Shown here: positions 1,311 through 61,421 of the stretch, in pieces
How positions within the stretch are numbered: position 1 is the first letter of the stretch
How the letters are laid out: each line of letters begins with the position of its first letter
Assembly (NCBI GenBank): GCA_015228815.1
Contig: JADGCV010000006.1
Coordinates: 74,495-138,494 of the forward strand
Source: Magnetococcales bacterium
GTDB taxonomy: Bacteria > Pseudomonadota > Magnetococcia > Magnetococcales > UBA8363
Direction: 5' to 3'
Length of the DNA stretch: 64,000 nt
The notes under the pieces: generated by a model
Database searches by the model: none
Told to the model about the DNA's origin: nothing
The model's input: only the letters and a program-made list of their open reading frames with translations
Made by a program: the position numbers and the translations under genes

Positions 1311-3023
1311 TCACCCCTCCTTGGCCACCGCATGGACCAGGCGGACTTCCGCCAGGCGCCAGGCGCCATCCAGGACATAGACCTTTTCAAGGTCCAACCG
1401 TTCCAACAATTGTGGCAAATGGACGATATTCTCGCCAATGGACCGTTTTTCGATGAAGGAGTGATCCCGGGCTTCCAGAAAATGGATGCGGTTGCCGCGG
1501 AGCGGAGTTTTGAACAAAAGCCGGTCCCGGATGCATACCTTCCCTGCGGACAGCTTGAGACGTCGTTCCAGGGTCCAGGGAGCGGACCGCCCCCCCAGAT
1601 TGGCCGACGATTGATTGAGGGCGCTCCCCTTTCGCCGACGGATCCAATCAATCCCCTTGCGGGTCAGACGCGACCCCAGGGCGGTGGAAGAAGCCAGACG
1701 CAATACCAGACGCGCCATGAACGAAGGGATGAATTTCTTGACCCGGGGCAACGGGGCCAACACGAACGGCTGGCCCTGTTCCACCCCGAAATGCAGGTGA
1801 CGGTCATAGGTCATGTTGGTGGCCGAACCCCGGTCCAGATCGAGGGCGTAGCCAAAATCGGCGACCGAACCCAACGTATCGGGAGAAAACAATCGTGTCA
1901 CCCCCCCGGCGACCGCGGCAAAAATGCCGGAACCGGCGCCGACATGAAAACGGATCAGGGCCGAATCCTTGAACAGGACCGGTTCCGCCATCGGATCCTC
2001 CATCGAGGCCCCCCTGGCCAGGGGAACCGCCTCTCCTTCGGGAGGGGCTATGGTTTGGCGCCTTTGGTAATAATCATGGGCCAGAAGCGTTTGAAACGCC
2101 CAGCGCGGCAGGCGCAAATCATCACCCAGCGTATTGGCGAAGCCTTTGAATCCGGTTTCCATCCTTGCGAAACGGTGATAAAGCCAAGCCGCCTGCCGGG
2201 AATAAGGCGACAATAAAATCACGGCGATGCGGGAAAGATAGGGATTATGGCAGACGCCATATTCTTCACCGATCGTCAAATCGGGATGAACCCATTGGCA
2301 GGCGAATTCGAAAGCGCGGACAAAAGGGGCGATGGCCGACCAGTCGTTCCACAAATCCATGGCCATGGCGACGAATTCCACCGTCAGAAAGGTGTACCCC
2401 ACATCCATGTGCCCCACCTCGGGAAACCATCCTTCGGTGGTTTGCGTCCGGAGGATGGACTGAAGTTTGTCACGGGCATTTGCGGTCAGGGCGGCATCAT
2501 CCAGGACATGCCCCGCCCACGCCAGCGCCGCCACGCCGACCGCCTGGTGGTTGGTTTTGAACAAATCCTGCCGTCCCTTCAGCCAGTGCGCGGTCGCGGC
2601 CAGTTTTTCCCGGGCATGGCGCACCAGTTCCGGCGGCAATACCCCCCCCACCTCCGCCAGGGTACGGGCCACGGCATGACAGGAGAACGCAGCCGCGGCA
2701 AAAGCCCGCTCTCCCTTGTACCATTCGTCCATGGAACCATCGCCATACTGGTTGGCGCACCAGAAACCAAGCTGTGCCGCCACGGTCGCCAACAGTTGCG
2801 GATCCCCTCGCCATGGAGAACCGGGATATTCCCGGACATACAGCAGGGCCAAAGGCAGCATCGCCTCCTGACGACGCATGTCGGAAATCTCCGAGGTCTT
2901 GTCGCGCCAATAGGCCAGATGCATCGACCCCCACGTCGGCGAAAGGGGATCACGATCCATCTGCCCCATCAATCGCGGTACCGCCCGATAAAGAAATTCG
3001 AGGGGCTGCCTCAGGTCCTTCAT
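1311..3023 (-). CDS. Conserved hypothetical protein (~570 aa) in a glycan-modification operon; family not recognised
   Basis: ORF track gives 1311..3296. I prefer the ATG at 3023 (MKDLRQPLEFLYRAV...) because it forms an ATGA overlap with the stop of the upstream GT2 gene (3020). The long open frame sits between asnB and GT2. I see no motif I can name. Confidence 0.6.
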   Translation of the reverse strand: MKDLRQPLEFLYRAVPRLMGQMDRDPLSPTWGSMHLAYWRDKTSEISDMRRQEAMLPLALLYVREYPGSPWRGDPQLLATVAAQLGFWCANQYGDGSMDEWYKGERAFAAAAFSCHAVARTLAEVGGVLPPELVRHAREKLAATAHWLKGRQDLFKTNHQAVGVAALAWAGHVLDDAALTANARDKLQSILRTQTTEGWFPEVGHMDVGYTFLTVEFVAMAMDLWNDWSAIAPFVRAFEFACQWVHPDLTIGEEYGVCHNPYLSRIAVILLSPYSRQAAWLYHRFARMETGFKGFANTLGDDLRLPRWAFQTLLAHDYYQRRQTIAPPEGEAVPLARGASMEDPMAEPVLFKDSALIRFHVGAGSGIFAAVAGGVTRLFSPDTLGSVADFGYALDLDRGSATNMTYDRHLHFGVEQGQPFVLAPLPRVKKFIPSFMARLVLRLASSTALGSRLTRKGIDWIRRRKGSALNQSSANLGGRSAPWTLERRLKLSAGKVCIRDRLLFKTPLRGNRIHFLEARDHSFIEKRSIGENIVHLPQLLERLDLEKVYVLDGAWRLAEVRLVHAVAKEG

Positions 3024-4060
3024 GAACCGGGCGCTCCAGGTTCCACCGCGGAGGAAACAGGCGGGTTGCACTTTTCCCCGGAATCGAACCCCTCGACACA
3101 GCGAATGGGCTTTTGCCCGGCATGGCCCAGATGGAGGTAGAACGTCAATTCTCCCAGCAATCCAAACGCGAGAAACATGAACCCGACCACCATCATGAAC
3201 GGAGAAAGCAACCAGATGGGATGGGATTGCAGCAGACCTTCCTGATGCCCCATCAAAAAGGAAACAAAATGCATCAGCATGAACACACCGCCCCAAAAGA
3301 TGGAAAACACGATGCAGATCATGCTATAGGCACCAAAGAAATAGAGCGGCGACTGCACATATCGGGTCAGGAAAAACACCGTGAGAAAATCCATGAGTCC
3401 GGTAAACATGCGGCTGGTACCAAACTTGGAACGACCAAAACGCCGTGGCGCATGTTCGATGGGCACCTCGCCGACGCGATAACCCCGATTGGCCATAAGC
3501 ACCAGGATATAACGATGCAACTGGCCATACAACGGCAATTCCTGCAAGCATTCCCGGCGGATCAACTTGAACCCGCAATTGAAATCCCGGATGGGAATCT
3601 TGGAAAACCGGCGCACGATGCGATTGAAAAGACGCGAGGGAAGGGTCTTGGTCAACGGATCCTGGCGATTGAACTTCCATCCCGTCACCACATCCAGATT
3701 TTGTTCTCTCATGGCTTGGAGAAGTTTGGGGATCTCTTCCGGTTGATCCTGAAGATCGGTGTCCATCATCACGACCAGTTCATGTTGCGCCAACCCGAAA
3801 CCCGCCTTCAAGGCATTGGATTTTCCCTGGTTGATCCGGAAATGGACTGCCTTCACGATCCCCGGATGCGCCCGCACCAGTTGGCTGATGATCTCGGTAG
3901 AACCATCATGACTGCCATCGTTGATGAAAATCACCTCATGCGGTCCAATATCGTCGAGCACGGGCAACAGCCGCGCCACCAGGGGATCGAGGGTCTGGGC
4001 TTCGTTGAAAACCGGAAGTACGACACTGATCCTGGTTTCTTTCAGTTCAGAGTCTGACAT
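3020..4060 (-). CDS. Family 2 glycosyltransferase with C-terminal transmembrane helices (polyprenyl-phosphate sugar transferase-like, GtrB/ArnC/DPM1 type)
   Basis: ISVVLPVFNEAQTLDPL...IFINDGSHDGS...MMDTDLQDQPEEIPKLL matches the GT2 DXD-type core, followed by hydrophobic C-terminal segments. An AAGGA lies upstream of the ATGs at 4066/4060. The ORF-track start at 4135 is probably too long. Confidence 0.8.
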   Translation of the reverse strand: MSDSELKETRISVVLPVFNEAQTLDPLVARLLPVLDDIGPHEVIFINDGSHDGSTEIISQLVRAHPGIVKAVHFRINQGKSNALKAGFGLAQHELVVMMDTDLQDQPEEIPKLLQAMREQNLDVVTGWKFNRQDPLTKTLPSRLFNRIVRRFSKIPIRDFNCGFKLIRRECLQELPLYGQLHRYILVLMANRGYRVGEVPIEHAPRRFGRSKFGTSRMFTGLMDFLTVFFLTRYVQSPLYFFGAYSMICIVFSIFWGGVFMLMHFVSFLMGHQEGLLQSHPIWLLSPFMMVVGFMFLAFGLLGELTFYLHLGHAGQKPIRCVEGFDSGEKCNPPVSSAVEPGAPGS

Positions 4061-6288: not shown

Positions 6289-7056
6289 TTAACAGTTCCG
6301 CTCGTACAGCAGTCGCAGACCGTTCAACGTCAAAAATTCATCGACCATCTCCACCCGCTTGCTCTCGGTCGCCATCAAACGCGCCAGCCCACCCGTGGCA
6401 ATCACCCGGACGGGCGCATATCCCGATTCCTCGATCATCCGGTCGATCAATCCATCGACCAACCCCACATAGCCCCAGAACAATCCCGACTGCATCGATC
6501 CGACCGTATCCCTGCCGACGACCACCTTGGGTTTGGCCAGCTCGATCCGGGGCAGTTTTGCCGTTTTCTCCGACAACGCATCCATCGACAGCCCCAATCC
6601 CGGCGCGATCGCCCCCCCCATGTAATCGCCGTTCGGACCCACCAGATCGAATGTCGTCGCCGTCCCGAAATCGACGACGATCGCCGCCGCCTTCAGGGAA
6701 TCGAACGCCGCCACCGCATTGACGATGCGATCCGCTCCCACCTCGCGCGGATTGTTGTAGCGTATGGTCATCCCCGTCTTGATGCCCGGCCCCACGATCA
6801 TCGGATGAATATTCAGATACCGCTTCAACGCCCGCACCAGGGCCGATTGGATCGGAGGGACGACACTCGCCAGAATGACGGCCTTCACCTCCCGCGCCGG
6901 CAGGTCGGTCAGATGAAACAGGTTGACGATCAGAATGCCATATTCATCCCCCGTCTGCGCCACCCGCGTCGCCAGACGCCAATGACGGATCAGGTTTTCC
7001 CCCTCGTAGACACCAAGGACCACATTGGTATTGCCAACGTCGATGACAAGTAGCAT
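6289..7056 (-). CDS. coaX: Type III pantothenate kinase
   Basis: [19 protein letters not shown]...DFGTATTFD...IATGG is the CoaX signature. The gene is adjacent to birA, as in many bacteria. An alternative start lies at 7089. Confidence 0.85.
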
Positions 7057-11782: not shown

Positions 11783-13861
11783 TCAATCCAGCTCACGGAT
11801 CCGGTCAAGTTCCTCGCGTACAACCTCCTCAATCAGTCCAGGCAACAGGCGTTGCACCATGGATGCGACCATCTCACGCACCAACTCCTCGACCTGGCCA
11901 CCATACAGTTCCTCCAACGACCGGGAAGTCACCGCCTCCGCTCCATCTCCCGCCACACCATCCAAACGAGAAAGAACACTCCATGGTTTTTCTTCTTCTT
12001 TTAAAAGTTTTTCTTCCAGAGGCTCTTCCTCCAGGGATGCTTCTTTTAAAAGTTTCTCTTCCAGAGGTTCCTCCTCAAGGGGTTCTTCCTCAAGGGATTC
12101 TTCTTTTGGAAGTTTCTCTTCCGGCGGTTCTTCCTCCAGGGATGCTTCTTTTAAAAGTTTCTCTTCCGGCGGTTCTTTCTCAAGGGATTTTTCCTCCAGA
12201 GAGTCTTCCTCAAGGGATTCTGCCTCAAGGGATGCTTCTTCTGAAAGTTCTTCTTCAAGAGATTCTTCTTTCAAAAGTTCCTCTTCCAGAGATTCTCCCT
12301 CCAGGGGGGGGGCTTCTAATAGTTTCTTCTCAAGATCCTCATCCGGAAATTCTTCTTTTAGAAGATCCTCCTCCAAGGATTCTTCTTTCAGAGATTCCTC
12401 TTTCAGAGATTCCTCTTTCAGAGATTCCTCTTCCAAGGATTCCTCTTCCAAGGATTCCTCTTCCAAGGGTTTCTCTTCCAAGGATTCCTCTTCCAAGGGT
12501 TCCTCTTCCAGAGATTCCTCTTCCAGAGGTTCCTCTTCCAAGGGTTCCTCTTCCAGAGATTCCTCTTCCAGAGGTTCCTCCTCCAAGGACTCTTCTTCCA
12601 GGGATTCCTCTTCCAGAGGTTCCTCCTCCAAGGACTCTTCTTCCAGGGATTCCTCTTCCAGAGGTTCCTCCTCCAAGGACTCTTCTTCCAGGGATTCCTC
12701 TTCCAGAGGTTTCTCCTCCAAGGATTCTTCTTCCAGAGATTCCTCCTCCAAGGACTCTTCTTTCAGAGATTCCTCTTCCAGAGGTTCCTCCTCCAAGGAC
12801 TCTTCTTTCAGAGATTCCTCTTCCAAGGACTCTTCTTTCAGAGATTCCTCTTCCAGCGGTTCCTCCTCCAAGGATTCTTCTTCTGAAAGTCCTTCTTCAA
12901 GAGATTCCTCTTCAAGAGATTCCTCTTCAAGAGATTCTTCCTCCAGGGATTTTTCTTTTAATAGTTTTTCCTCCAGAGATTCCTCATCCGGGGATTCTTC
13001 CAGAGGGAAAGTATCCTGCTCCGAGGGTTCGGGAATGAAGGTTGCTTCCTTTTCGATCGGGATTTCCGATTTCCCCCCAGGAGGGGTTTCATTTTCTTCT
13101 TCCACATCGAGCGGCGGCGGATTTTCGATGGCGGCGTCAAGGAGTTCCAGATCATCCTCGTCCGCGGCGTCAAGGAGGACGGTCTCCTCCTCACCGACGC
13201 CGATGGCGGATTCATCCTCCTTCGATAATTCTCCGGAAAGGGATGAAAGGTCTTCCCAATCACCGGGTTGCGAAACCAGCTTCACCCCCGGTTCACCGGA
13301 ATCCTCCGCCCCGATCGGTTCCATCAAGAGGTGTTCTTCCCCATCGGTATCCTCATTGGAAAGAAGAGCCATCATTTCGTCATCGATCGCTTCCCGTTCC
13401 ATGGCGGTCATGTCCGGAGCATCCTTGGCCGATTCCATGACCGCGGCGATATTGACCGGGGTGGGAAAATCGATTTCCATTCCGGTCAGGTCGAGAATAT
13501 CATCATCTTCATCCATCACCGGGACCGGGTCGCCGGAAGCGGATTGGGGTATCGCACCCGCTTCGGGATCTTCGGGACCGGAATGGATTGGAGAATCGAC
13601 CTCGGAGGGGGGCGAAGGGGAGACATTCTCCGCGAATTCCTCGCTGTCCAACATGCTCTCCAGTGAATTGAGGACCTCCTCCATGGAAGGGACCGGAGGG
13701 ATGTCGGCGGGAAGAGAATCGGGAATGACGCTCCTGGACTCCGTTGCGGAAGGTTCCAGACTGTCGGCCAGTTCGACCTTTTTCAGGGGGGATTTTTTTC
13801 GGCTCGCGGTCCCCTCGGTTTTCTTGACCGACCTGGGTTTGGTGTCCTTGATGGCGGCCAT
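11783..13861 (-). CDS. Giant acidic repeat protein (692 aa) with PopZ/DUF2497-like N- and C-terminal motifs
   Basis: The central ~340 aa consist almost entirely of E-S-L-E-E / E-P-L-E-E pentapeptides. The N-terminal PSMEEVLNSLESML and C-terminal VEELVREMVASMVQRLLPGLIEEVVREELDRIRE resemble my recollection of Caulobacter PopZ termini. The gene lies immediately upstream of valS. Confidence 0.7.
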   Translation of the reverse strand: MAAIKDTKPRSVKKTEGTASRKKSPLKKVELADSLEPSATESRSVIPDSLPADIPPVPSMEEVLNSLESMLDSEEFAENVSPSPPSEVDSPIHSGPEDPEAGAIPQSASGDPVPVMDEDDDILDLTGMEIDFPTPVNIAAVMESAKDAPDMTAMEREAIDDEMMALLSNEDTDGEEHLLMEPIGAEDSGEPGVKLVSQPGDWEDLSSLSGELSKEDESAIGVGEEETVLLDAADEDDLELLDAAIENPPPLDVEEENETPPGGKSEIPIEKEATFIPEPSEQDTFPLEESPDEESLEEKLLKEKSLEEESLEEESLEEESLEEGLSEEESLEEEPLEEESLKEESLEEESLKEESLEEEPLEEESLKEESLEEESLEEESLEEKPLEEESLEEESLEEEPLEEESLEEESLEEEPLEEESLEEESLEEEPLEEESLEEEPLEEEPLEEESLEEEPLEEESLEEKPLEEESLEEESLEEESLKEESLKEESLKEESLEEDLLKEEFPDEDLEKKLLEAPPLEGESLEEELLKEESLEEELSEEASLEAESLEEDSLEEKSLEKEPPEEKLLKEASLEEEPPEEKLPKEESLEEEPLEEEPLEEKLLKEASLEEEPLEEKLLKEEEKPWSVLSRLDGVAGDGAEAVTSRSLEELYGGQVEELVREMVASMVQRLLPGLIEEVVREELDRIRELD
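11990..12975 (-). repeat. Coding tandem repeat array of 15-nt units (and 30/45-nt higher-order units) encoding (E/K)(S/P)LEE
   Basis: The plus strand shows gattcctcttccaag / gactcttcttccagg / ggttcctcctccaag units repeated dozens of times. The array is in frame with the 11783..13861 ORF. Confidence 0.9.
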
Positions 13862-13937
13862 TTTTCCTCTTTCATCCCACCGGGGGATCGTCTGGAGACC
13901 CGAAATCGTCCTTCACATCGGTCCGATCGGTGATCAA

Positions 13938-15212
13938 TCACCATCCAAAATACAGACGGACGGTATCCATCAAATTGCCAATGAATCCTCCCGAGGGAAG
14001 TTCCCTGGATGCCACAACAGGACGATTGAGCAATTCCTGGCCCTTGAATTTAACGATCACCGAGCCGATCTGCTGTCCCTTTTCCAGTGGGGCGAAGATG
14101 GGATCTTCATAGACCATCCCGACCTCCAGGCTGTTTCTTTCCTTTCTGGGGATGGTCACCACGATCGGCTTGTCCACCGTGGCATCGACGAAGTCCTCCG
14201 CCCCCTTCCAGATGCGAAGGCTGCGAATCAAAGCCCCCGGTTCGTAGACGCGCACGGTTTCGAACATGCGGTTGCCATAACGCAGGAGACGCAGGGCATC
14301 CTCCTCGCGCACCTTGCTGCCCGTCGAACCGAGAATGACGGCGGAAAGCCGCTGTCCCTCCTTCTCGCTGGTGGCGACCAGACAATAACCCGCCTCGCGG
14401 GTATGACCGGTCTTGAGGCCGGTGATGGAAGGGTCCCGCCACAAAAGACGGTTGCGGTTGTACTGCTGGATGCCGCTGAAGGTGTACTGCTTCTCCTTGA
14501 CGAAGTAGCTGTACTCGGGATAGCGGTTCATGATGGCACTTGCAAGTTTGAACAGGTCGCGGGCGCTGGTGTAGTGGTTGGGATCGGGCAATCCGGTAGG
14601 ATTCATGAAGTGGGAGTTGGTCAATCCCAATTCCTTGGCCCTGGCGTTCATCATGTCGATGAACCCCGCCTCCGATCCCCCCAGGTGTTCCGCCACCACG
14701 ACGCAGGCATCGTTGCCGCTCTGCACCGCAATCCCGCGGATCAAATCATCGACCTTGATTTCATCGCCAACCTTGACGAAGGTCTTCGATCCCGCAGTCC
14801 GCCACGCCTTTTCACTGACCGGAAGTTTCTGTTCCAGATTCATGTCCCCTTTCGCCAGGGCCTCGTAGATCAGATACAGCGTCATGATCTTGGTCAGAGA
14901 GGCGGGTGGCACCACCTTGTCGGGGTCCTTCTCGAACATGATCACGCCGGTATCGAGGTCACCAAGAATCGCCGACGTGGCGCGAATGTCGAGTGCGTTG
15001 CGATCGGGTTCGACCGCGGAAGAAGACCAGGGAAGAAGACAGAACGTCAAAAACAGCGTTGACAGTATGATGATTGGCACGACGAAAACCCCTCGGATGC
15101 AAGGGTCCCTGTTGATCGAGGTTTTTCCCTGCCAGGCAGTCCGGGCCTGGCCCCAAACCAGATTGTTTTCGGTGCGCATGGCGATGGCCGGTTTCGAACC
15201 GGTTCCAGCCAT
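13938..15212 (-). CDS. D-alanyl-D-alanine carboxypeptidase (PBP5/6 family)
   Basis: The SxxK (ASLTKIM), SxN (QSGNDA) and KTG (KTGHT) motifs are present. The start is uncertain. A GTG at 15080, preceded by GAGGGG, would give a clean signal peptide (MPIIILSTLFLTFCLLPWSSSA). The gene sits downstream of rlpA, like E. coli rlpA-dacA. Confidence 0.85.
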   Translation of the reverse strand: MAGTGSKPAIAMRTENNLVWGQARTAWQGKTSINRDPCIRGVFVVPIIILSTLFLTFCLLPWSSSAVEPDRNALDIRATSAILGDLDTGVIMFEKDPDKVVPPASLTKIMTLYLIYEALAKGDMNLEQKLPVSEKAWRTAGSKTFVKVGDEIKVDDLIRGIAVQSGNDACVVVAEHLGGSEAGFIDMMNARAKELGLTNSHFMNPTGLPDPNHYTSARDLFKLASAIMNRYPEYSYFVKEKQYTFSGIQQYNRNRLLWRDPSITGLKTGHTREAGYCLVATSEKEGQRLSAVILGSTGSKVREEDALRLLRYGNRMFETVRVYEPGALIRSLRIWKGAEDFVDATVDKPIVVTIPRKERNSLEVGMVYEDPIFAPLEKGQQIGSVIVKFKGQELLNRPVVASRELPSGGFIGNLMDTVRLYFGW

Positions 15213-26775: not shown

Positions 26776-27142
26776 TTGACACACATCCTCTTTTTTTCCT
26801 ATCCTGCCCCCATGGACACGACTCGCAAACACACCCCGTCGCTGCGACTGCATGGCTCCCTCCCGAGTGCCAACCCCGACCCGTGGGCGAAGGAAGGTTT
26901 GCGACAGGACTGAGTTGATCCGCCAAATCTTGAAACCGAAGGCCATGGGTTCCCCCGAATCCATGGCTTTTTTAATTCCCCCTTCCCGACAAAAAAAGCG
27001 GAGGAAAATAATGAAAAAAAACCATTTTTTACTGCGACTGACGGGCGGCCGCCTTTGGATGGCGTTGTGGCGCCCAGGCGGCCGGTTCGCTCCCACCATT
27101 GTCCTTCAATCGCATACGACAAGGAGTCGATTTCGATGTTGA
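26776..27142 (+). promoter_or_regulatory. Candidate leuA leader: sigma70-like promoter, two small ORFs, intrinsic terminator and repeated CATGG cores
   Basis: TTGACA (26776-81), an 18-nt spacer, then TATCCT (26800-05). An ATG at 26812 sits 7 nt after the -10 element and opens a possible leaderless 33-codon ORF. A terminator hairpin lies at 26942-67 with a T6 run. A second 43-codon uORF (27011-27142) has GGAGG 6 nt upstream and overlaps the leuA ATG. Confidence 0.3.
26939..26973 (+). terminator. Rho-independent terminator-like hairpin
   Basis: GCCATGG (26942-48), a 12-nt loop, CCATGGC (26961-67), then TTTTTT (26968-73). An AA tract precedes the stem. Confidence 0.55.
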
Positions 27143-28833
27143 CCCAGGCCCGCCGGAAATACCGCCCCGCCCCGCCCATTCCCATGACGGTCCGCCATTG
27201 GCCCGACCGCACCCTTTCCCAACCACCCCAATGGTGCAGCATCGACCTTCGCGATGGCAACCAGGCCCTGGCGATTCCGATGAACCCGGAACGGAAAAGA
27301 CGTCTGTTCCAGATGCTCATCCGTTTGGGATTTCGTGAAATAGAAGCCGGCTTTCCCGCCGCCTCTCAGGATGAATTCGCCTTCATGCGCACCCTGGTCG
27401 ATACCACCCCCGAGGAGGTCGCCATCCAGGTATTGACCTCGGCACGCGAGGAACACATACGCCGCACTTTCGCAGCCCTCGAAGGGATGCCCCAGGCAAC
27501 CGTCCATTTTTATCTTTCCACCTCCCCGGTCCAACGGCGGGTGGTGTTCGGAGTGGATGAAAAAACCCTGATCGCACGGGCCGTCACCGCCGCAACCTTG
27601 ATCCGGACCCTTGCCGAACGGCAACCGGAGACCCGATGGCACTTTCAATTTTCGCCCGAGAGTTTCTCGGCGACGGAGCCTGAATTTGCCCTTGCCATCT
27701 GCGAAGCGGTGGTTGCAGTCTGGGAACCCGACCGCGAACACCGGATTATTCTCAATCTTCCCGCCACGGTCGAAGTCGCGGCACCCAACCGGTTTGCCGA
27801 CCAGATCGAATGGTTCGACCGCCACCTTGCCCGCCGTGAGGCAGTCATCCTTTCCATTCATCCCCACAACGACCGCGGGTGTGCTGTCGCGGCGGCGGAG
27901 TTGGCCCTTTTGGCCGGGGCGGAACGTGTCGAGGGGGCCTTGTTCGGCAATGGGGAACGGACGGGAAACCTTGATCTTGTCACGTTGGCGCTCAATCTTT
28001 ACAGCCAGGGAATCGATCCCGGACTTGATCTTTCGGACATGGGGCAAATAATCGAATGTTACCGTGAATGCACCGGAATGGAGGTCGCCCCGCGCCACCC
28101 CTATGCCGGAGCCATGGTCCATACCGCCTTTTCGGGATCCCATCAGGATGCCATCCGCAAGGGATTGGCCGCCGCGGTCCCGGACGGCCCCTGGGAGGTC
28201 CCCTACATTCCCATCGATCCCCGTGACATGGGCTTTGATTTGTCGGGCATCATCCGGGTCAACAGCCAATCGGGAAAGGGGGGAGCGGCCTATCTTCTGG
28301 CCCGGGAACGCGGCATCACCCTTCCCCGCTGGCTCGAACCGGAATTCGCCCGTGAAGTGCAACGGGCGACGGAACAAAGCGGTGGTGAATTGTCCGCACC
28401 CCAACTCATCGACCTGTTCGACCGGACCATGCGGCATCCACCGCAACACATCCGCCTGGAACACAGCCATCTGTACCAGGAGCCGCAACGGGAGTTGCCC
28501 CAGGATTCAGGATACCGGATCGAATTGAAGGTGACGATCGATGGCCAATCCAGAACCCTTTTCGGCCAGGGCAACGGTCCCATCGATGCCGCCTGCCACG
28601 CCTTGCCGGGTCCGTGGCACATCCGACAGTATGAGGAACACGCCCTGGGACAAGGGAGCGATGCCCAGGCCATCGCCTTCATCCAGCTCGAACAACATCC
28701 CTGCCGCCCCCGGTCCGGCGTGGGAATTCATGAGGACATCATCACCGCCTCCCTGCACGCCTTGATGGCGGCCATCAACCTCTGCCTTGCAGAATGGTCC
28801 CCCGCCGACCGTCGAACCTTGTTTTTGGATTGA
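27136..28833 (+). CDS. leuA: 2-isopropylmalate synthase, long (actinobacterial/LeuA type 2) form
   Basis: AAGGAG lies 9 nt upstream of the [53 protein letters not shown] and a C-terminal LeuA dimer/regulatory domain are present. The ORF-track start at 27055 is probably too long. Confidence 0.9.
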   Translation: MLTQARRKYRPAPPIPMTVRHWPDRTLSQPPQWCSIDLRDGNQALAIPMNPERKRRLFQMLIRLGFREIEAGFPAASQDEFAFMRTLVDTTPEEVAIQVLTSAREEHIRRTFAALEGMPQATVHFYLSTSPVQRRVVFGVDEKTLIARAVTAATLIRTLAERQPETRWHFQFSPESFSATEPEFALAICEAVVAVWEPDREHRIILNLPATVEVAAPNRFADQIEWFDRHLARREAVILSIHPHNDRGCAVAAAELALLAGAERVEGALFGNGERTGNLDLVTLALNLYSQGIDPGLDLSDMGQIIECYRECTGMEVAPRHPYAGAMVHTAFSGSHQDAIRKGLAAAVPDGPWEVPYIPIDPRDMGFDLSGIIRVNSQSGKGGAAYLLARERGITLPRWLEPEFAREVQRATEQSGGELSAPQLIDLFDRTMRHPPQHIRLEHSHLYQEPQRELPQDSGYRIELKVTIDGQSRTLFGQGNGPIDAACHALPGPWHIRQYEEHALGQGSDAQAIAFIQLEQHPCRPRSGVGIHEDIITASLHALMAAINLCLAEWSPADRRTLFLD

Positions 28834-28902
28834 CCTCCGGAAATTCCAGTCTCCCCCCCGTCCGGGATCGGCCCGCCGATCCCGGACCCTTTCACAATCG
28901 TT
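27871..28902 (+). repeat. Direct repeat copy 1: leuA 3' ~960 bp plus ~70 bp downstream, duplicated at 34331-34925
   Basis: Hand alignment gives 27871-28046 = 34331-34506 and 28491-28902 = 34514-34925, at roughly 96-97% identity. Similarity stops abruptly at both outer ends. Confidence 0.9.
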
Positions 28903-34261: not shown

Positions 34262-34924
<663 letters not shown>

Positions 34925-34925
<1 letters not shown>

Positions 34926-45583: not shown

Positions 45584-45643
45584 CCCAGACCCCTTTTTTC
45601 TTTCAATAATCTCGAACCGAGGGGAAGATACCTGGGCAGTTAC
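45584..45643 (+). repeat. Dispersed repeat copy A: 27-mer, variable gap, 15-mer
   Basis: cccagaccccttttttctttcaataat (45584-45610) is identical to the reverse complement of 58925-58951. tacCtgggcagttac (45629-43) matches the reverse complement of 58897-58911 with 1 mismatch. Confidence 0.85.
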
Positions 45644-45679
45644 GTTGTTTCTTCAAGGCTCGCGGATGAAGGAAAGGAT

Positions 45680-49199: not shown

Positions 49200-49353
49200 G
49201 TGAATCCATGAAACCGCAACCATCTTGGGATGCGTCGTTTTCGTCATTCCCACAGTGGTTGACCGAAAGCGGCCCCCCTGGACTCGAAGCGGATCGTTCA
49301 GAACGGATACGGCAAGATCACCGCCGTCATCCACCGTTCCCAAGGCGAACCCC

Positions 49354-50460
49354 ATGACCGACGTCGCCCAGCCTCATGATCATCTGTTGAAAGCCATCCT
49401 CGCCGATGCCGAAACGGCGGGAACCCTGCTGCGTGAGCGGCTGCCTGCCGAGGTGGCGGTTTTGCTTGCCCCCGATCCGCCGGAACTGGTGGAAGGCAGC
49501 TTCATCGACGACGCGCTGCGGGAGCACCGAACCGACCGTCTCTATCGGGCACGGCTCAAGGACGGCGGGGATGCCTTCATCTACACCCTGCTGGAGCACA
49601 AGAGCCGACCGGACCGCAAGGCCGGCTGGCAGTTGCACCGCTACATGACCCGCGTCCTGGAGCAATGGGAACGGGAACACCCGGACTGGGAACATCTGCC
49701 ACCCGTCATCGGCATGGTCCTCTATCACGGCGCCGCCCCCTGGCGGGTTCCGGACGAGTTCCGTTCCCTGATGGCAGGATGCGAGGCCTTGCACCCCTAC
49801 CTGCCCAATTTTCGTTTCGTGGTAGTGGACCTGGGTCGGATCGACAACGAAGCCTTGTCCGGCAATCCCCGCCTGCGGGCCGGACTGCTGACCCTGAAAT
49901 TCGTCTTTCGCAAGGGGGAACAACGAGGTATCATAAGGATGGTCGGGTTGTCGTTGCGGAAGGCCCCCGATCTGCTGCACCAAATCGTCCTGTATATGGT
50001 CTCGACCTACAATGGCATCGACGAGGCGGCAATCCGGGAACTGGTCCGGACAGCCCGCCCAAAGGAGGAAGCGATGATGGTTTCCAAGTTCGCGAGGGAT
50101 ATACTCTCGGACCATCCCCCCGCCTGGGTGGTGGATATGGTGCGACAGGAAGCGAGGATGATGACTCCGTTCGCGCAGAAGATCCTTGCAGAAAATCCCC
50201 CCGACTGGACGGTGGATATAGTGCGACAGGAAGGTCGGCAGGAAGGTCGGCAGGAAGGTCGGCAGGAAGGTCGGCAGGAAGGTCGGCAGTCCGAGGCAGT
50301 GACCATTCTGGTTCGCCTGCTCCGTCGCCGCTTCGGGCAACTTCCGGACTGGGTATCCGCCCAGGTCAACGCAGCAAAGACGGAACTCCTTGAAATCTGG
50401 TCGGATCGTATCCTGGACGCCCAATCCCTGGAAGAAGTTTTCCACGTTTCGGAAAAATAG
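49354..50460 (+). CDS. Rpn-family recombination-promoting nuclease / putative transposase (YhgA-like PD-(D/E)xK) with a DUF4351-like C-terminus
   Basis: MTDVAQPHDHLLKAIL...DRLYRARLKDGGDAFIYTLLEHKS...VLYHG is the Rpn/Transposase_31 core. The C-terminus has duplicated 24-aa units, an (RQEG)x5 run and LVRLLRRRFGQLPDWV. Confidence 0.8.
   Translation: MTDVAQPHDHLLKAILADAETAGTLLRERLPAEVAVLLAPDPPELVEGSFIDDALREHRTDRLYRARLKDGGDAFIYTLLEHKSRPDRKAGWQLHRYMTRVLEQWEREHPDWEHLPPVIGMVLYHGAAPWRVPDEFRSLMAGCEALHPYLPNFRFVVVDLGRIDNEALSGNPRLRAGLLTLKFVFRKGEQRGIIRMVGLSLRKAPDLLHQIVLYMVSTYNGIDEAAIRELVRTARPKEEAMMVSKFARDILSDHPPAWVVDMVRQEARMMTPFAQKILAENPPDWTVDIVRQEGRQEGRQEGRQEGRQEGRQSEAVTILVRLLRRRFGQLPDWVSAQVNAAKTELLEIWSDRILDAQSLEEVFHVSEK
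50227..50289 (+). repeat. Perfect 12-nt tandem repeat (caggaaggtcgg) x5 inside the Rpn gene
   Basis: Five identical consecutive units encode QEGR x5. Confidence 0.95.
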
Positions 50461-50648
50461 AAAAAAACAGACACCAAACCGCAACCAGCCTGGGATACGC
50501 AGTTTTCAAATGCCATTCCCGCCTTCGCTTGAGATGACGTTTGGCAATGACGCATCGCAGGATGGTTGCGATTCAAGAAGACCCGGAACGGCGACTTTCA
50601 TCCCCCGGTCCTTGCGAAAATGTTGGACCATCGCCACCGGAATTGACC

Positions 50649-57983: not shown

Positions 57984-58712
57984 ATGAAACAAGGAAAAGT
58001 GTTGTCGCTATTGGGGATGGGCGCGTTGGCCATGGCGCTGTCCTCCTGTGCCCCCCCTGTCGCCCAGGAGGGCTGGATGCATCAGGGATTTCGTCAATGG
58101 CATCCGCAGGCGGGCAAGGCCCAGATCGCCGCGACCGGCACCCAGTGTTATTTTTGCGCGCCGACCGCGACGGTCGAGGCCGCAAAGGCCGATGGCGACA
58201 GCGACGATGACCGTGTGCGGGACAGCCAGGATCAATGCCCTGGAACTCCGAAGGGGATCACCGTGGATGCGCGCGGATGCCCCTTGAATGTCGATGGCGA
58301 CAATGACGGCGTTCAGGATCACCTGGACAAATGCCTGAAAACCCCGACGGGGGCAAAGGTGGACACCGATGGATGCTGGCAACCGGGTCCCATCCAGTTT
58401 GGCACGGGCAGCACGAAAATCGATCTTGACGCCCGGAAGGTTCTCAAGGAACTCATCATCGTCCTGAAGAACAATCCCCACGTCACCCTGGGCATTCATG
58501 GTCACGCCGACAATCGCGGCAAGGACAAGGCCAACAAGAAGTTGGCGGAAAGCCGGGCCAAGGTGATTCAACAGTATTTGATCAAGAATGGCATCGCCAA
58601 AGACCGCCTCTCCGTGGCCACCTTCGGCGAACAACAACCGATCGCCGACAACAAGTCGAAACAAGGACGGGCGAAAAACCGCCGGGTCGAATTTGTCGCC
58701 CAACCACATTGA
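57984..58712 (+). CDS. OmpA-family lipoprotein with thrombospondin type 3 (calcium-binding) repeats
   Basis: AAGGAG RBS. A lipobox is present (ALSSC). DSDDDRVRDSQDQCPGTPKG and DGDNDGVQDHLDKCLKTPTG are TSP3 repeats. The OmpA C-domain reads GHADNRG...NKKLAESRA...NRRVEF. Confidence 0.85.
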   Translation: MKQGKVLSLLGMGALAMALSSCAPPVAQEGWMHQGFRQWHPQAGKAQIAATGTQCYFCAPTATVEAAKADGDSDDDRVRDSQDQCPGTPKGITVDARGCPLNVDGDNDGVQDHLDKCLKTPTGAKVDTDGCWQPGPIQFGTGSTKIDLDARKVLKELIIVLKNNPHVTLGIHGHADNRGKDKANKKLAESRAKVIQQYLIKNGIAKDRLSVATFGEQQPIADNKSKQGRAKNRRVEFVAQPH

Positions 58713-58896
58713 TCTGCCCGGTTCATCGAACCCGGGGGTGCCCGATCGCGGCGCCCCCGGGGGCAGTATGCCGTCTTATGACATCGAGGAAGGCGCGATA
58801 GGGACTTGGCCATCGAAGAACGTCAGGCGAATGTACGATGCCCTGAGCAAACGCACGGATGCATGATGGTTGTGGATCGCAAATTGAATAGAGATG

Positions 58897-58951
58897 GTAA
58901 CTGCCCAAGTACCTTACAGGTTTAATTATTGAAAGAAAAAAGGGGTCTGGG
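58897..58951 (-). repeat. Dispersed repeat copy B (inverted relative to copy A at 45584-45643)
   Basis: gtaactgcccaAgta (58897-58911) and attattgaaagaaaaaaggggtctggg (58925-58951) are present. The gap is 13 nt here versus 18 nt in copy A. This copy abuts the five-hairpin element. Confidence 0.85.
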
Positions 58952-58965
58952 GGATTGCCCCCAGG

Positions 58966-59262
58966 GTTTTGATTTTGTTTTTGACTTTGTTTTTTACGCG
59001 CCATTTCACCCGAAGCGGTTTCTCGCGTGGTTTTTGCGAGAAACCGCGCAGGCGCGTGCCTTGGTTTGCCCTTCTTCGCGGTTTTTGCGAAGAAGGGCAA
59101 ACGCATTGCAGGATGGAAACTTGCAATGTGTCCTGGTCTTTTCGCAAAAACCGCGAAAAGACCAGGACCAGAGCGCGCGCCTGAGCGAATTTCCGCAAAA
59201 ATCACGCGGAAATTCGCTTCGGGTGAAATGGCGCATGGAAAAACAAAATCAAAATCAGCGGC
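58966..59262. repeat. ~300 bp composite palindromic element: T/A-rich terminal inverted repeats, a 20-bp closing stem and five perfect internal hairpins (REP/BIME- or MITE-like)
   Basis: - Closing stem: 58998-59017 pairs with 59215-59234 (20/20)
- H1: 59015-26/59036-47, 12 bp, loop gtggttttt
- H2: 59065-79/59087-101, 15 bp, loop ggttttt
- H3: 59104-10/59122-28
- H4: 59131-45/59153-67, 15 bp, loop aaaaacc
- H5: 59185-96/59206-17, 12 bp, loop aaaaatcac. Confidence 0.85.
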
Positions 59263-59277
59263 GCCCCCTTTTTTCGT

Positions 59278-60381
59278 TCATGCTCCAAAGGACTCAAGGG
59301 CCTGACGGGTACGTTGAATCTGCTGAAGTATGATCCGTTCGATTCCCTGGGGACTGGTCTGCTTGCCCAGACTGAATCGCAACCATTGGGAGCGGCACAA
59401 CGAAAAGTTTATCCCACCATTGGCGAATATCCCATGAATCCTCGGGTGTCGCTCCAGCCATTCCCCGACCGCCGGAGCGACATCCACCGAGCGACCGACC
59501 GGATAGGCCAGAAAATCGATCAGAGAGATTCCTTTTTCTTTCCAATAGCATTCGTTGTCCTCGATGGCCCGAACCGCCTCCGTGGCCGTCTGGCGCCCGA
59601 GGAGGCGGTGGCCGGTGGTATGGTTGCCGATCTCCCAGCCCCCCCGCTCAAGCTCCGCCACCGCCGCACAATCCAGATGGATGCGCAACGCGGCAGGATC
59701 CCCCAGGCACTCGTGAAACACGGCTGTCGTCGCCTCTTCGACCACATCGGCCACATAGTTGTCCTTGATCCGGGCAAACAATTCTTCCCCCGTTTCCGGC
59801 CAGCGAACTTCCGGGGCCATGGAACCAAGAACCGCCGCCAATCGTGACGCATGCCCCCGCGCCACCAGCAGCGCCGCCAACACCCGAAAAAAACTTTGCC
59901 TCCCTCCGGCAAACTCGGAACAAACAAATACCGTCGGTTTCAATCCCAGCGACCGGATGACCGGATGGGCATGGGTCAGATTGTTGGTGAAACCATCGTC
60001 GAACGTCACGGCAAAACAAGGCCGATCGGGTCCGCCCCGCTCCCAAAGTCCGGGCAATTCACCAAGCGCCACAGGGGTCATGCGGGTCATCATGAACTCC
60101 AGTTGCGCCCGAAATTCAGCCACGGTCGTTTCCCCCTTTCGATAACACGCTTCCCAGGGTTGTCGATGGTCGGGATCGACGATACTGTGGTAGATCAGAA
60201 TGTAGATGCCGTTGGGAAACACGGAGGTCTTCGCCAGGCCCTTTCCCCCCGGAATCAGTCTTCGAAAAAGACGGGACATGGGCGTCGCGGTCGTTGCCGG
60301 TTGGACAACGGTGGACCGCTCGATCGCTTTCTGAAGCGCCGGCCATTCACCCCCTGGTCCCGGGAGCGCGGGTGACATCAT
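59278..60381 (-). CDS. Polysaccharide deacetylase (NodB-homology/CE4-like) family protein
   Basis: ILIYHSI...FAVTFDDGFTNNLTHAHPVIRSLGLKPTVFV...IGNHTTGH are family motifs. The preferred start MMSPALPG at 60381 forms an ATGA overlap with the upstream gene's stop. An alternative ATG lies at 60279. Confidence 0.8.
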   Translation of the reverse strand: MMSPALPGPGGEWPALQKAIERSTVVQPATTATPMSRLFRRLIPGGKGLAKTSVFPNGIYILIYHSIVDPDHRQPWEACYRKGETTVAEFRAQLEFMMTRMTPVALGELPGLWERGGPDRPCFAVTFDDGFTNNLTHAHPVIRSLGLKPTVFVCSEFAGGRQSFFRVLAALLVARGHASRLAAVLGSMAPEVRWPETGEELFARIKDNYVADVVEEATTAVFHECLGDPAALRIHLDCAAVAELERGGWEIGNHTTGHRLLGRQTATEAVRAIEDNECYWKEKGISLIDFLAYPVGRSVDVAPAVGEWLERHPRIHGIFANGGINFSLCRSQWLRFSLGKQTSPQGIERIILQQIQRTRQALESFGA

Positions 60382-61421
60382 CCGAGGCCCCCCTGGCCCG
60401 TCAGGGTGGTCCAGATCCAGGGGACCCGCCGCAACCATCGGCGACGCGCCAGAACCTGGTCCCGCTCGGCCCGTAAATGACAAAACAGATCATGATACCC
60501 ACGACACATTCGTTCGGCGGTATGGGGAAATCCAGCCATCCGGGCAGTCCATTGGGGAAAGGTGGCGAGCATTTCCTCCAATTTTTCTTCCAGGGTTTCG
60601 GGTGAATATTCAATGCCAAACCCTTGGCAATATTCAGGCATGGAACCGCTGTTCAGATAGAGGAGCGGCAATCCGGTCAGGCCCGCCTCCAGGTTGTGAT
60701 GCCCCCCCGATTCGTGCCTCGATGCGGTGATGTAGGCATCATGGCGGCGCAATTCCTCCGCCAGCGCCTCTCCCGACAGGGGTTCCAGATGCCGTCCCTG
60801 CTCAAAACGAAACCCTTCCGGCACACGTCCGATATAGGTAAACTCGATCCGCGAGGCCCAGCGGGGATCGGCCAGCAAACGATCCAGGCGCTGATAGACA
60901 TCAAACCCCTTGTTCCAGTGGTTGCTCCAATGATGGGTCACCAGCCTGAGCCGCGCCCCCCGGATCCGGGATGCCCCCGGATGCCACAACCGTTGATCGC
61001 TGCCATTGAGGAGAATGCTCGACGGGCGCGCTGGATCGAATCCCGCCGCGACATAACGATCCCGGACCCACGCGCTGACAAAGACGGTATGATCGGCGAT
61101 CCGGTTGGCATGGATGCGAAACCGGTTGAATTTTTTTTCGGCGTCGTCCCTGGCCTCACTGGTGTTGTTGATCCGATGCACCACGATGGCTTTGGAGTTT
61201 TTCAAGAGCAGGTAGCGCAGGATGGCCTTGTGGTCGTAGGCGGAAATGCGCAGACGGGCATCGGGTTCGACCAGGAGTATGATGTCAAGATCGCGGTCCC
61301 CGAGGTCATGAACGACCGCTTCACCCCGATCCTTCAGATAACGGCTCAGGGAATGGCCGAATTGGTTCCCGCCACCCCAGGCCCCCGATTGAAGGTTCAT
61401 GCCAAGACTGATCTTCATCAT
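60378..61421 (-). CDS. Putative GT-B fold glycosyltransferase
   Basis: MMKISLGMNLQSGAWGGGNQFGHSL forms the N-terminal half. The C-terminal ITASRHESGGHHNLEAGLTGLPLLYLNSGSMPEY resembles a GT4 EX7E region. The ORF-track start is 61439. Confidence 0.65.
   Translation of the reverse strand: MMKISLGMNLQSGAWGGGNQFGHSLSRYLKDRGEAVVHDLGDRDLDIILLVEPDARLRISAYDHKAILRYLLLKNSKAIVVHRINNTSEARDDAEKKFNRFRIHANRIADHTVFVSAWVRDRYVAAGFDPARPSSILLNGSDQRLWHPGASRIRGARLRLVTHHWSNHWNKGFDVYQRLDRLLADPRWASRIEFTYIGRVPEGFRFEQGRHLEPLSGEALAEELRRHDAYITASRHESGGHHNLEAGLTGLPLLYLNSGSMPEYCQGFGIEYSPETLEEKLEEMLATFPQWTARMAGFPHTAERMCRGYHDLFCHLRAERDQVLARRRWLRRVPWIWTTLTGQGGLG

Follow-up and report, generated by a model that had tools for sequence, protein, structure and literature searches.

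The described bacterial repeats that lie closest to the element reported here are the miniature inverted-repeat transposable elements (MITEs), such as the Correia elements of Neisseria, whose definition and upper size of ~400 bp have been reviewed (PMC3184786), REP (repetitive extragenic palindromic) repeats together with the bacterial interspersed mosaic elements (BIMEs, defined in PMC3337134) and the systems that pair REP doublets forming hairpins (REPINs) with REP-associated tyrosine transposases (RAYTs) (PMC3116915, PMC3337134), and SPRITE, a Rho-independent terminator-like repeat of Streptococcus pneumoniae (listed in PMC3184786 and described in PMC3049150). The locus considered here is a composite palindrome at about 58926-59280 of a 64,000-nucleotide stretch of a Magnetococcales metagenome-assembled genome (MAG), hereafter called the window, where it occupies most of the spacer between convergent OmpA-family and polysaccharide deacetylase genes. 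It belongs to a repeat family whose copies are scattered over unrelated loci, for the most part at the 3′ ends of genes in convergent spacers, and whose pairing is maintained by compensatory change; the family is previously undescribed and of a well-known bacterial repeat kind. We consider it on balance probable that a non-coding intergenic repeat of Magnetococcales, palindromic and mosaic in build and similar to MITEs and BIMEs, is present here as a decayed copy, and that this repeat has spread as a non-autonomous DNA element and doubles as a bidirectional terminator. Rhizobium-specific intergenic mosaic elements (RIMEs), from the related bacterial class Alphaproteobacteria, are also composed of large palindromes and differ from this element in architecture and size.

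The preliminary description had placed the palindrome at 58966-59262 and built it from five hairpins (HP1 to HP5, Table 1) inside a perfect 20-bp closing stem; the palindrome is real, and the structure is larger than those limits. Pairing by script found the closing stem (left arm GCGCCATTTCACCCGAAGCG) exact, and the four loop sequences reported for the outer hairpins stand letter for letter. The stem lengths then given (12, 15, 7-9, 15 and 12 bp) were right for HP1 and for the 7 perfect pairs of HP3 and slightly too short for the other three (Table 1). The stem of HP3 comes to 10-12 bp over its whole extent if one G-T pair is tolerated, and this central hairpin is the least conserved part of the element. 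Likewise, the T-rich and A-rich inverted repeats with an indel, noted outside the closing stem, form 16 pairs without a mismatch (58967-58982 with 59239-59254), and 12 additional nt are present in the left arm. The dyad continues outward, where an A-run/GGGG arm (58936-58945) pairs with a CCCC/T-run arm (59265-59274), and a sixth hairpin, CTGGGGG-attg-CCCCCAG, occupies 58947-58964. The conserved loop 13-mers (CGCGGTTTTTGCG) are inverted about the dyad, with AT-rich tracts on either side. With a 12-nt seed, six inverted repeats were detected across the window, five of them inside this site, and the palindrome is the sole strong inverted-repeat cluster of the 64 kb. In keeping with the earlier view that open reading frames (ORFs) called here are artefacts, the single ORF examined across the palindrome had no Pfam match, and indels separate the copies.

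Folding predictions agree with an extremely stable structure on both strands. As RNA, 58920-59290 reached −226.8 kcal/mol (z = −21.1) on the plus strand and −216.2 kcal/mol (z = −18.6) on the minus strand, the DNA fold of the core reached −114.6 kcal/mol (z = −17.4), and none of the shuffled sequences attained the native folding stability. Each of the five hairpins can fold locally, as had been proposed, but in the minimum-energy fold only HP2, HP3 and HP4 do so, and HP1 pairs with HP5. The five-hairpin form costs only 2.5 kcal/mol (DNA parameters) or 4.5 kcal/mol (RNA parameters) over this minimum, so the two forms would be near-isoenergetic. The core of either strand is thus predicted to be a long stem capped by a three-hairpin junction or, alternatively, a row of five hairpins.

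A genome scan with one genome per species, from a collection that does not include the source MAG, was made for the inverted loop 13-mers, that is, CGCGGTTTTTGCG and CGCAAAAACCGCG separated by 38-68 nt. This loop-dyad pattern occurred at nine genome loci and at three more in metagenomes, and five of the nine, together with one metagenome locus, are the same element as that of the window, the genome copies coming from three Magnetococcales MAGs. The search for further copies that had been suggested yielded six homologous ones, in other genomes and away from this locus. Their parts follow a constant order, running from the terminal repeat through a (TTTTGA)n tract, the closing stem, HP1, a linker and HP2 to the central hairpin, and onward through HP4, a linker, HP5, the closing stem and an A-rich tract to the other terminal repeat. 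The six copies share 83-94% identity with one another and 72-75% with the window copy. Their neighbours are unrelated, including a hybrid histidine kinase and AcrB, ApaG and an MBL hydrolase, a DUF6272 protein and an FAD oxidoreductase, and DnaE, and most copies are located just past a stop codon in the spacer of a convergent gene pair. A relative (L020), with an MBL protein of 83% identity, has an orthologous MBL-ApaG convergent pair, and the spacer there, 368 nt of unrelated sequence, lacks the element.

Full copies measure 400-420 bp and carry at each end an inverted repeat of about 50 bp (ATTATTRAAAGAAAAAAGGGGTCTGGGGGATTGCCCCCAGGGTTTTGATTTTG), which was seen at both ends of L006, L007, L010, L011 and L012; between these ends are (TTTTGA)n tracts of variable number and a core of ~240 bp. 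The terminal module consists of an A-run, a GC hairpin and a T-rich tract, and scored as intrinsic-terminator-like on both strands. Its better T tract points inward, so that polymerases arriving from either flank would meet the terminal hairpin first. In the window, the left terminal repeat is intact and the right one is degenerate, and this copy is, judging from its missing right terminal hairpin, a decayed and probably immobile one. The TGA of the right terminal repeat serves as the stop codon of the deacetylase gene (59278-59280, minus strand), and the C-terminus of the deacetylase is not shortened relative to its homologues.

The same modules also occur outside the composite element. A partial second terminator module with its outer flank is present elsewhere in the window (45584-45656), the 11-kb loci L001-L003 of a relative contain four such modules, either solo or as halves, the GTAACTGC.. 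arms also flank a solo terminator module in L001 (10540-10660), and A-tract-plus-hairpin units stand in tandem in L018. One of the modules in L001-L003 is located directly 3′ of the orthologous deacetylase gene, and the left module of the window copy is homologous to that terminator in L001. Because the outer flank module, the A-run/GGGG arm, the GC hairpin and the hexamer tracts recur alone, in tandem and in the composite, the repeat family can be described as a mosaic of reusable modules, with the combinatorial reuse in intergenic repeats that marks BIMEs. Individual copies carry further flank modules, shared or inverted, beyond the terminal repeats, for example GTGTTGACATTC../..GAATGTCAACAC in L010 (7105-7150 and 6650-6700) and TGATCATTTTCAGGYATTTGTACRTGCCAATTTCAAATGC, common to L006 (5464-5513), L011 (4117-4166) and L015, which suggests nested or modular assembly.

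As a dispersed, sequence-conserved unit of GC hairpin and T-run 3′ of genes, the terminal module resembles SPRITE in its putative intrinsic-terminator form. SPRITE, in contrast, is a single unit of ~105 bp from Firmicutes, whereas here two modules bracket a 300-bp palindromic core, and there is no sequence relationship between them.

The left terminal module is far better conserved than the core. About 52 nt are identical between the window copy and the ends of L006, identity to L007 is 97% over 73 nt, and the other copies are near-identical, while the core is only ~74% identical, with differences mainly in the stems. For comparison, among 5.8 billion proteins the deacetylase of the window is 100% identical to a protein of a Magnetococcales MAG, the next homologue stands at 62-64%, and no other database deacetylase exceeds about 64%; the orthologous MBL-ApaG spacer is unalignable at 83% identity of the MBL protein.

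That pairing rather than sequence is preserved in the stems, as the preliminary description had proposed, is borne out by the alignment of copies (A1), in which 96.8% of 943 cells are paired and both sides have changed in 19 of 162 pairs. Control shuffles gave 5.1 +/- 2.0 double-changed pairs, with 0 of 500 reaching 19, and sliding the partners by 1-3 columns gave 1-4. By helix, the compensated pairs fall in HP4 (8 of 16 pairs changed relative to the other subfamily), HP2 (3) and the closing-stem helix (4). HP2 and HP4 keep a 16-bp stem and a 7-nt loop in all copies, the loop of HP2 being identical throughout, with the exception of a single G-T mismatch in HP4 of L011, and a fresh compensated change is seen in HP4 of one closely related copy, L010. 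The same holds between the two arms of the window copy, where 4 of 12 stem positions distinguish HP1 from reverse-complemented HP5 and 8 of 16 distinguish HP2 from reverse-complemented HP4; every one of these differences is compensated, while the loops and the closing stem are the same.

Among described repeats, the element comes closest to MITEs, as the preliminary description had suggested when it listed a MITE or a REP/BIME-like repeat as candidates, and its architecture does recur at unrelated loci with conserved terminal repeats and a mosaic of shared modules. The fit to MITEs rests on conserved ends with a variable interior, the unrelated loci, the absence at an orthologous site and the lack of an internal gene, while the resemblance to BIMEs comes from the modular make-up. 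Like MITEs, the element is non-coding, multi-copy and intergenic, has terminal inverted repeats around a short core (left intact and right degenerate in the window copy), forms a very stable long stem-loop, stays within the ~400-bp upper range and may overlap gene ends; its copies are dispersed, with at least three on separate contigs of one MAG and others in two further MAGs, and vary in presence and absence. It departs from MITEs in that its terminal repeats are terminator modules that also occur solo, and in that a palindrome branching into several hairpins takes the place of a simple spacer in the core.

A trans-acting enzyme may recognise the strictly conserved terminal module, and the element would then have spread as a non-autonomous DNA element; sequence-specific recognition is suggested because a plain terminator needs structure only, not 52 identical bases. 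Each end, to judge from its sequence form, would stop transcription entering from the flanking gene, making the element a double terminator or insulator. Quasipalindromes are corrected by hairpin-templated template switching, and the stems could be kept perfect by such correction, by selection for folding of single-stranded DNA, or by both. In the window copy, the deacetylase transcript would run through the core because the right terminator hairpin has been lost, and would end probably at the left module.

Several points weigh against this reading. The terminator or insulator role is drawn entirely from the form of the sequence, and the empty MBL-ApaG spacer is too diverged to serve as a clean empty site. 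The window holds just one full and one partial copy, and its MAG was outside the scanned collection. No direct repeat, as expected of a MITE with its target-site duplication, was seen at the junctions when the flanks were inspected by eye with the ends taken as ATTATT and AATAAT; a TA duplication is compatible with the sequence and is not distinguishable, owing to the palindromic nature of these ends. The genome and metagenome scans, which used the loop-dyad pattern, turned up no parent insertion sequence or other autonomous partner sharing the terminal repeats, and no classical transposase lies near any copy. Moreover, alignment A1 comprises six sequences with one outlier, and most of its compensatory cells trace to a single lineage split.

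The hairpins could instead be REP sequences, forming a REPIN/BIME cluster moved as single strands by a RAYT (Y1/HUH) transposase encoded once elsewhere in the genome, an origin raised in the preliminary description that we regard as unlikely. They are indeed GC-clamped, arranged as inverted GC-rich pairs and located in the convergent spacers that REP/BIME repeats prefer; their stems vary with perfect compensation around conserved loops, also between subfamilies, which would suit recognition of single-stranded hairpins, and the mosaic of shared modules is that of BIMEs. REP sequences, on the other hand, are GC-rich palindromes of 20-40 nt with a 5′ GTAG-type tetranucleotide that occur as singles and inverted doublets, and the element falls outside this definition: no GTAG-type signature precedes any hairpin, and the 400-bp unit is four times the size of a REPIN (about 100 bp). 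Within ~210 kb examined, GGTTTTT-loop hairpins were confined to the composite element, with no solo or doublet hairpins outside it, so that they appear to be its parts and not free-standing REP-like units. The best-conserved part is the terminal module and not the hairpins, and no Y1_Tnp match, and hence no RAYT, was found among the ~45 ORFs of the 64-kb window to which that check was confined.

Somewhat less probable still is a structured non-coding RNA, or a 3′ untranslated structure of the deacetylase mRNA, with hairpins that act at the RNA level, be it as stabiliser, as protein sponge or otherwise. The extreme predicted stability (z about −20) and the compensatory changes would suit such an RNA, and loss of the right terminal hairpin would let the deacetylase transcript of the window copy enter the core directly. 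The strict dyad symmetry, however, folds both strands alike, with stems that are Watson-Crick perfect on both, and an RNA needs no such thing; in full copies, the inward-facing terminator modules would shield the core from transcription, and the copies occupy both kinds of gene context. The region 58500-59600 showed no sigma-70-type promoter, a gathering-level Rfam scan of the whole window gave no match, and E-value scans of the locus and five related loci returned only noise of the miRNA-precursor type far below threshold. The suggestion of a structured RNA is thus disfavoured, and the Rfam check proposed with it was negative.

A cis-acting DNA site for a host or plasmid machine, such as the replication or transfer origin that had been considered, a single-strand initiation signal, or a partition, recombination or cruciform-binding site, is very improbable. 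Inverted conserved 13-mers between AT-rich tracts, insulated from transcription by terminator modules, would suit such a site, but there are several copies per genome, their neighbours are housekeeping genes of unrelated kinds with no gene for replication, a relaxase, partition or a recombinase alongside, and the element is missing from the orthologous locus of the relative. Searches of mobile replicons agree, with no blastn match to the element in plasmid and phage collections and no match among viral contigs to either the loop-dyad pattern or the terminal-repeat core. A one-off local palindrome without family or function, produced at the convergent gene pair by template switching, which can create and perfect palindromes, would fit a copy that is unique within the 64 kb and is hardly credible, being refuted by the six homologues present elsewhere, in different genomes and at different loci.

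Two further links were considered and rejected. Palindrome-associated transposable elements (PATEs) derived from IS200/IS605 have subterminal hairpins without terminal inverted repeats, whereas this element has long terminal inverted repeats and the window encodes no Y1 transposase. A relationship to the Tn3 family was set aside, as GGGGTCTG, which we take to resemble the first 8 nt of Tn3-family inverted repeats, is too short to mean anything. The literature yielded nothing relevant on repeats or MITEs of Magnetococcales.

Part of the architecture recurs in another phylum. Just past a Fic-domain gene of an uncultured Cytophagia MAG (L009), a GC-rich island of ~260 bp (6690-6950; ~60% GC in flanks of 30-35%) contains the hairpin CCCGGGGTCGC-ggttttt-GCGACCCCGGG, a central hairpin and the hairpin GTGGCCGC-aaaaacc-GCGGCCAC. 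Its loops are identical to those of the window copy and their spacing is 54 nt against 53 nt, with unrelated stems of 11 bp and 8 bp. We think it unlikely that the inner module, in which CGC/GCG-closed GGTTTTT and AAAAACC hairpins flank a central hairpin inside an outer stem, is a cross-phylum recognition structure for a hairpin-binding enzyme, or a folded RNA with kissing loops; if true, this would establish a new class of mobile or functional elements that are specified by structure and differ from REPIN-RAYT. The match could also stem from convergence or chance, since a 13-mer on one side of any palindrome automatically has its mirror image on the other. Two other loci (L016 and L017) have the 13-mer pair with local stems of only 3-6 bp, which may be a chance occurrence within unrelated palindromes, and they were given little weight.

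The loci from a Candidatus Xenobia MAG (L008, L013 and L014) were set apart as a different family with prophage and TPR neighbours and no transposase. In each of its palindromes, a central hairpin is enclosed by inverted arrays in which 3-4 GCGGTTTTT/GCGGTTTTC 9-mers follow one another in tandem, and two of the copies bracket a TPR gene beside Mu-like portal and terminase genes.

For annotation, the repeat family and its terminator module would explain mirrored spurious ORFs and long "empty" convergent spacers in Magnetococcales MAGs, and the copies could mark strain-level variation. The element is also a natural case of a 400-bp branched palindrome kept perfect by compensatory change, and may be useful for studies of palindrome tolerance. 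It opens no long-standing question, as MITE, REP and BIME families are numerous and a new one is expected in an uncultured lineage. Possible routes to a new mobilising enzyme are offered by the strict conservation of the terminal module across genomes with ~60% identical deacetylases and by the recurrence of the GGTTTTT-loop module in another phylum. Coordinates are collected in Table 1.

Table 1. Parts of the palindromic repeat and its surroundings in the window, with copies of the element and of the Candidatus Xenobia palindromes in other assemblies.
Feature	Position	Strand	Remarks
Partial second terminator module with outer flank (GTAACTGCCCAGGTA)	45584-45656	-	ends at GGGGTCTGGG, 17 nt past the stop of an aspartate-semialdehyde dehydrogenase-like gene
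OmpA-family gene, left convergent neighbour	57984-58712	+	Pfam OmpA, E = 5.7e-22
Outer flank module (TTGAAT..GTAACTGCCCAAGTACC..)	58884-58925		found together with the terminator module in this lineage; 78% identical to window 45584-45656 across 73 nt
Left terminal inverted repeat (ATTATTGAAAGAAAAAAGGGGTCTGGGGGATTGCCCCCAGGGTTTTGATTTTG)	58926-58975		includes hairpin 58947-58964; has bidirectional intrinsic-terminator form
T-rich hexamer tract, (TTTTGA/TTTTGT)n	58965-58996	+	partner is the A-rich tract 59239-59257; repeat number differs among copies
Closing stem, left arm	58998-59017		4 pairs compensated relative to the other subfamily (helix 2)
HP1	59015-59047		12-bp stem, loop gtggttttt
HP2	59064-59102		16-bp stem, loop ggttttt closed by CGC/GCG; 3 pairs compensated (helix 5)
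HP3, central hairpin on the dyad axis	59101-59131		7 perfect bp at 59104-59128, loop ggatggaaact
HP4	59130-59168		16-bp stem, loop aaaaacc (minus strand: ggttttt); helix 7
HP5	59184-59218		13-bp stem, loop aaaaatcac
Closing stem, right arm	59215-59234		pairing by script
A-rich hexamer tract	59239-59257	+	partner of the T-rich tract
Degenerate right end (CAGCGGCGCCCCCTTTTTTCGTTCA)	59258-59280		terminal hairpin missing; 17-nt gap in alignment A1 in place of CCCTGGGGGCAATCCCCCAG
Polysaccharide deacetylase gene, right convergent neighbour	59278-60483	-	database protein P0001, 367 aa
Same element, L006, L010, L011			three contigs of Magnetococcales MAG nWRX3bin6
Same element, L007			MAG C5_bin.1
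Same element, L012			MAG DCbin2
Same element, L015			metagenome
Candidatus Xenobia palindromic copy, L008	7800-7930
Candidatus Xenobia palindromic copy, L013	2230-2360
Candidatus Xenobia palindromic copies, L014	2040-2160; 4690-4810

The true start of the deacetylase gene probably lies downstream of the ORF start, since the database protein P0001 has only 367 aa. The gene of its nearest homologue has another downstream neighbour, and a solo terminator-like module is the only comparable feature there. Directly 3′ of the OmpA stop codon are two GC-rich hairpins without a T-run (58713-58780; CCCGGTTC..GAACCCGGG and GGGGGTGCC..GGCGCCCCC), and ~150 nt of unassigned sequence lie between them and the repeat. 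A Pfam survey of the ~45 window ORFs showed ordinary housekeeping genes and one Transposase_31 (Rpn/YhgA-like) gene at 49225-50460, with no member of the Y1 (IS200/RAYT), DDE or serine/tyrosine recombinase families among them.

The Transposase_31 ORF, which also carries DUF4351, is bordered by direct repeats of ~30 bp at 49209-49243 and 50477-50510 (AAACCGCAACCA.C.TGGGAT.CG..GTTTTC), both encoding KPQP(S/A)WD in one frame. It looks like an insertion that has duplicated sequence just upstream of the next ORF, a glycosyltransferase at 50541. In the relative represented by L001-L003, an Rpn/Transposase_31 gene (2837-3793) is inserted between glycosyltransferase genes that are adjacent in the window, and it lies directly 3′ of a copy of the terminator-like module (2750-2800). 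A link between such genes and the module was considered and set aside; the Rpn-like gene of the window has no adjacent module.

Elsewhere in the window, two pairs of direct repeats (28488-28902 and 34511-34925, 415 nt, 97%; 27871-28049 and 34331-34509, 179 nt, 94%) duplicate the 3′ part of a leuA-like gene (27055-28833) ~6 kb downstream. The copies flank NACHT/FGE-sulfatase and TIR-domain/FGE-sulfatase genes, which look like an insertion of the defence-island type. Finally, the ORF at 11859-15062 (1067 aa, no Pfam match) contains diverged internal tandem repeats at 11993-13006, with about 70-83% identity.

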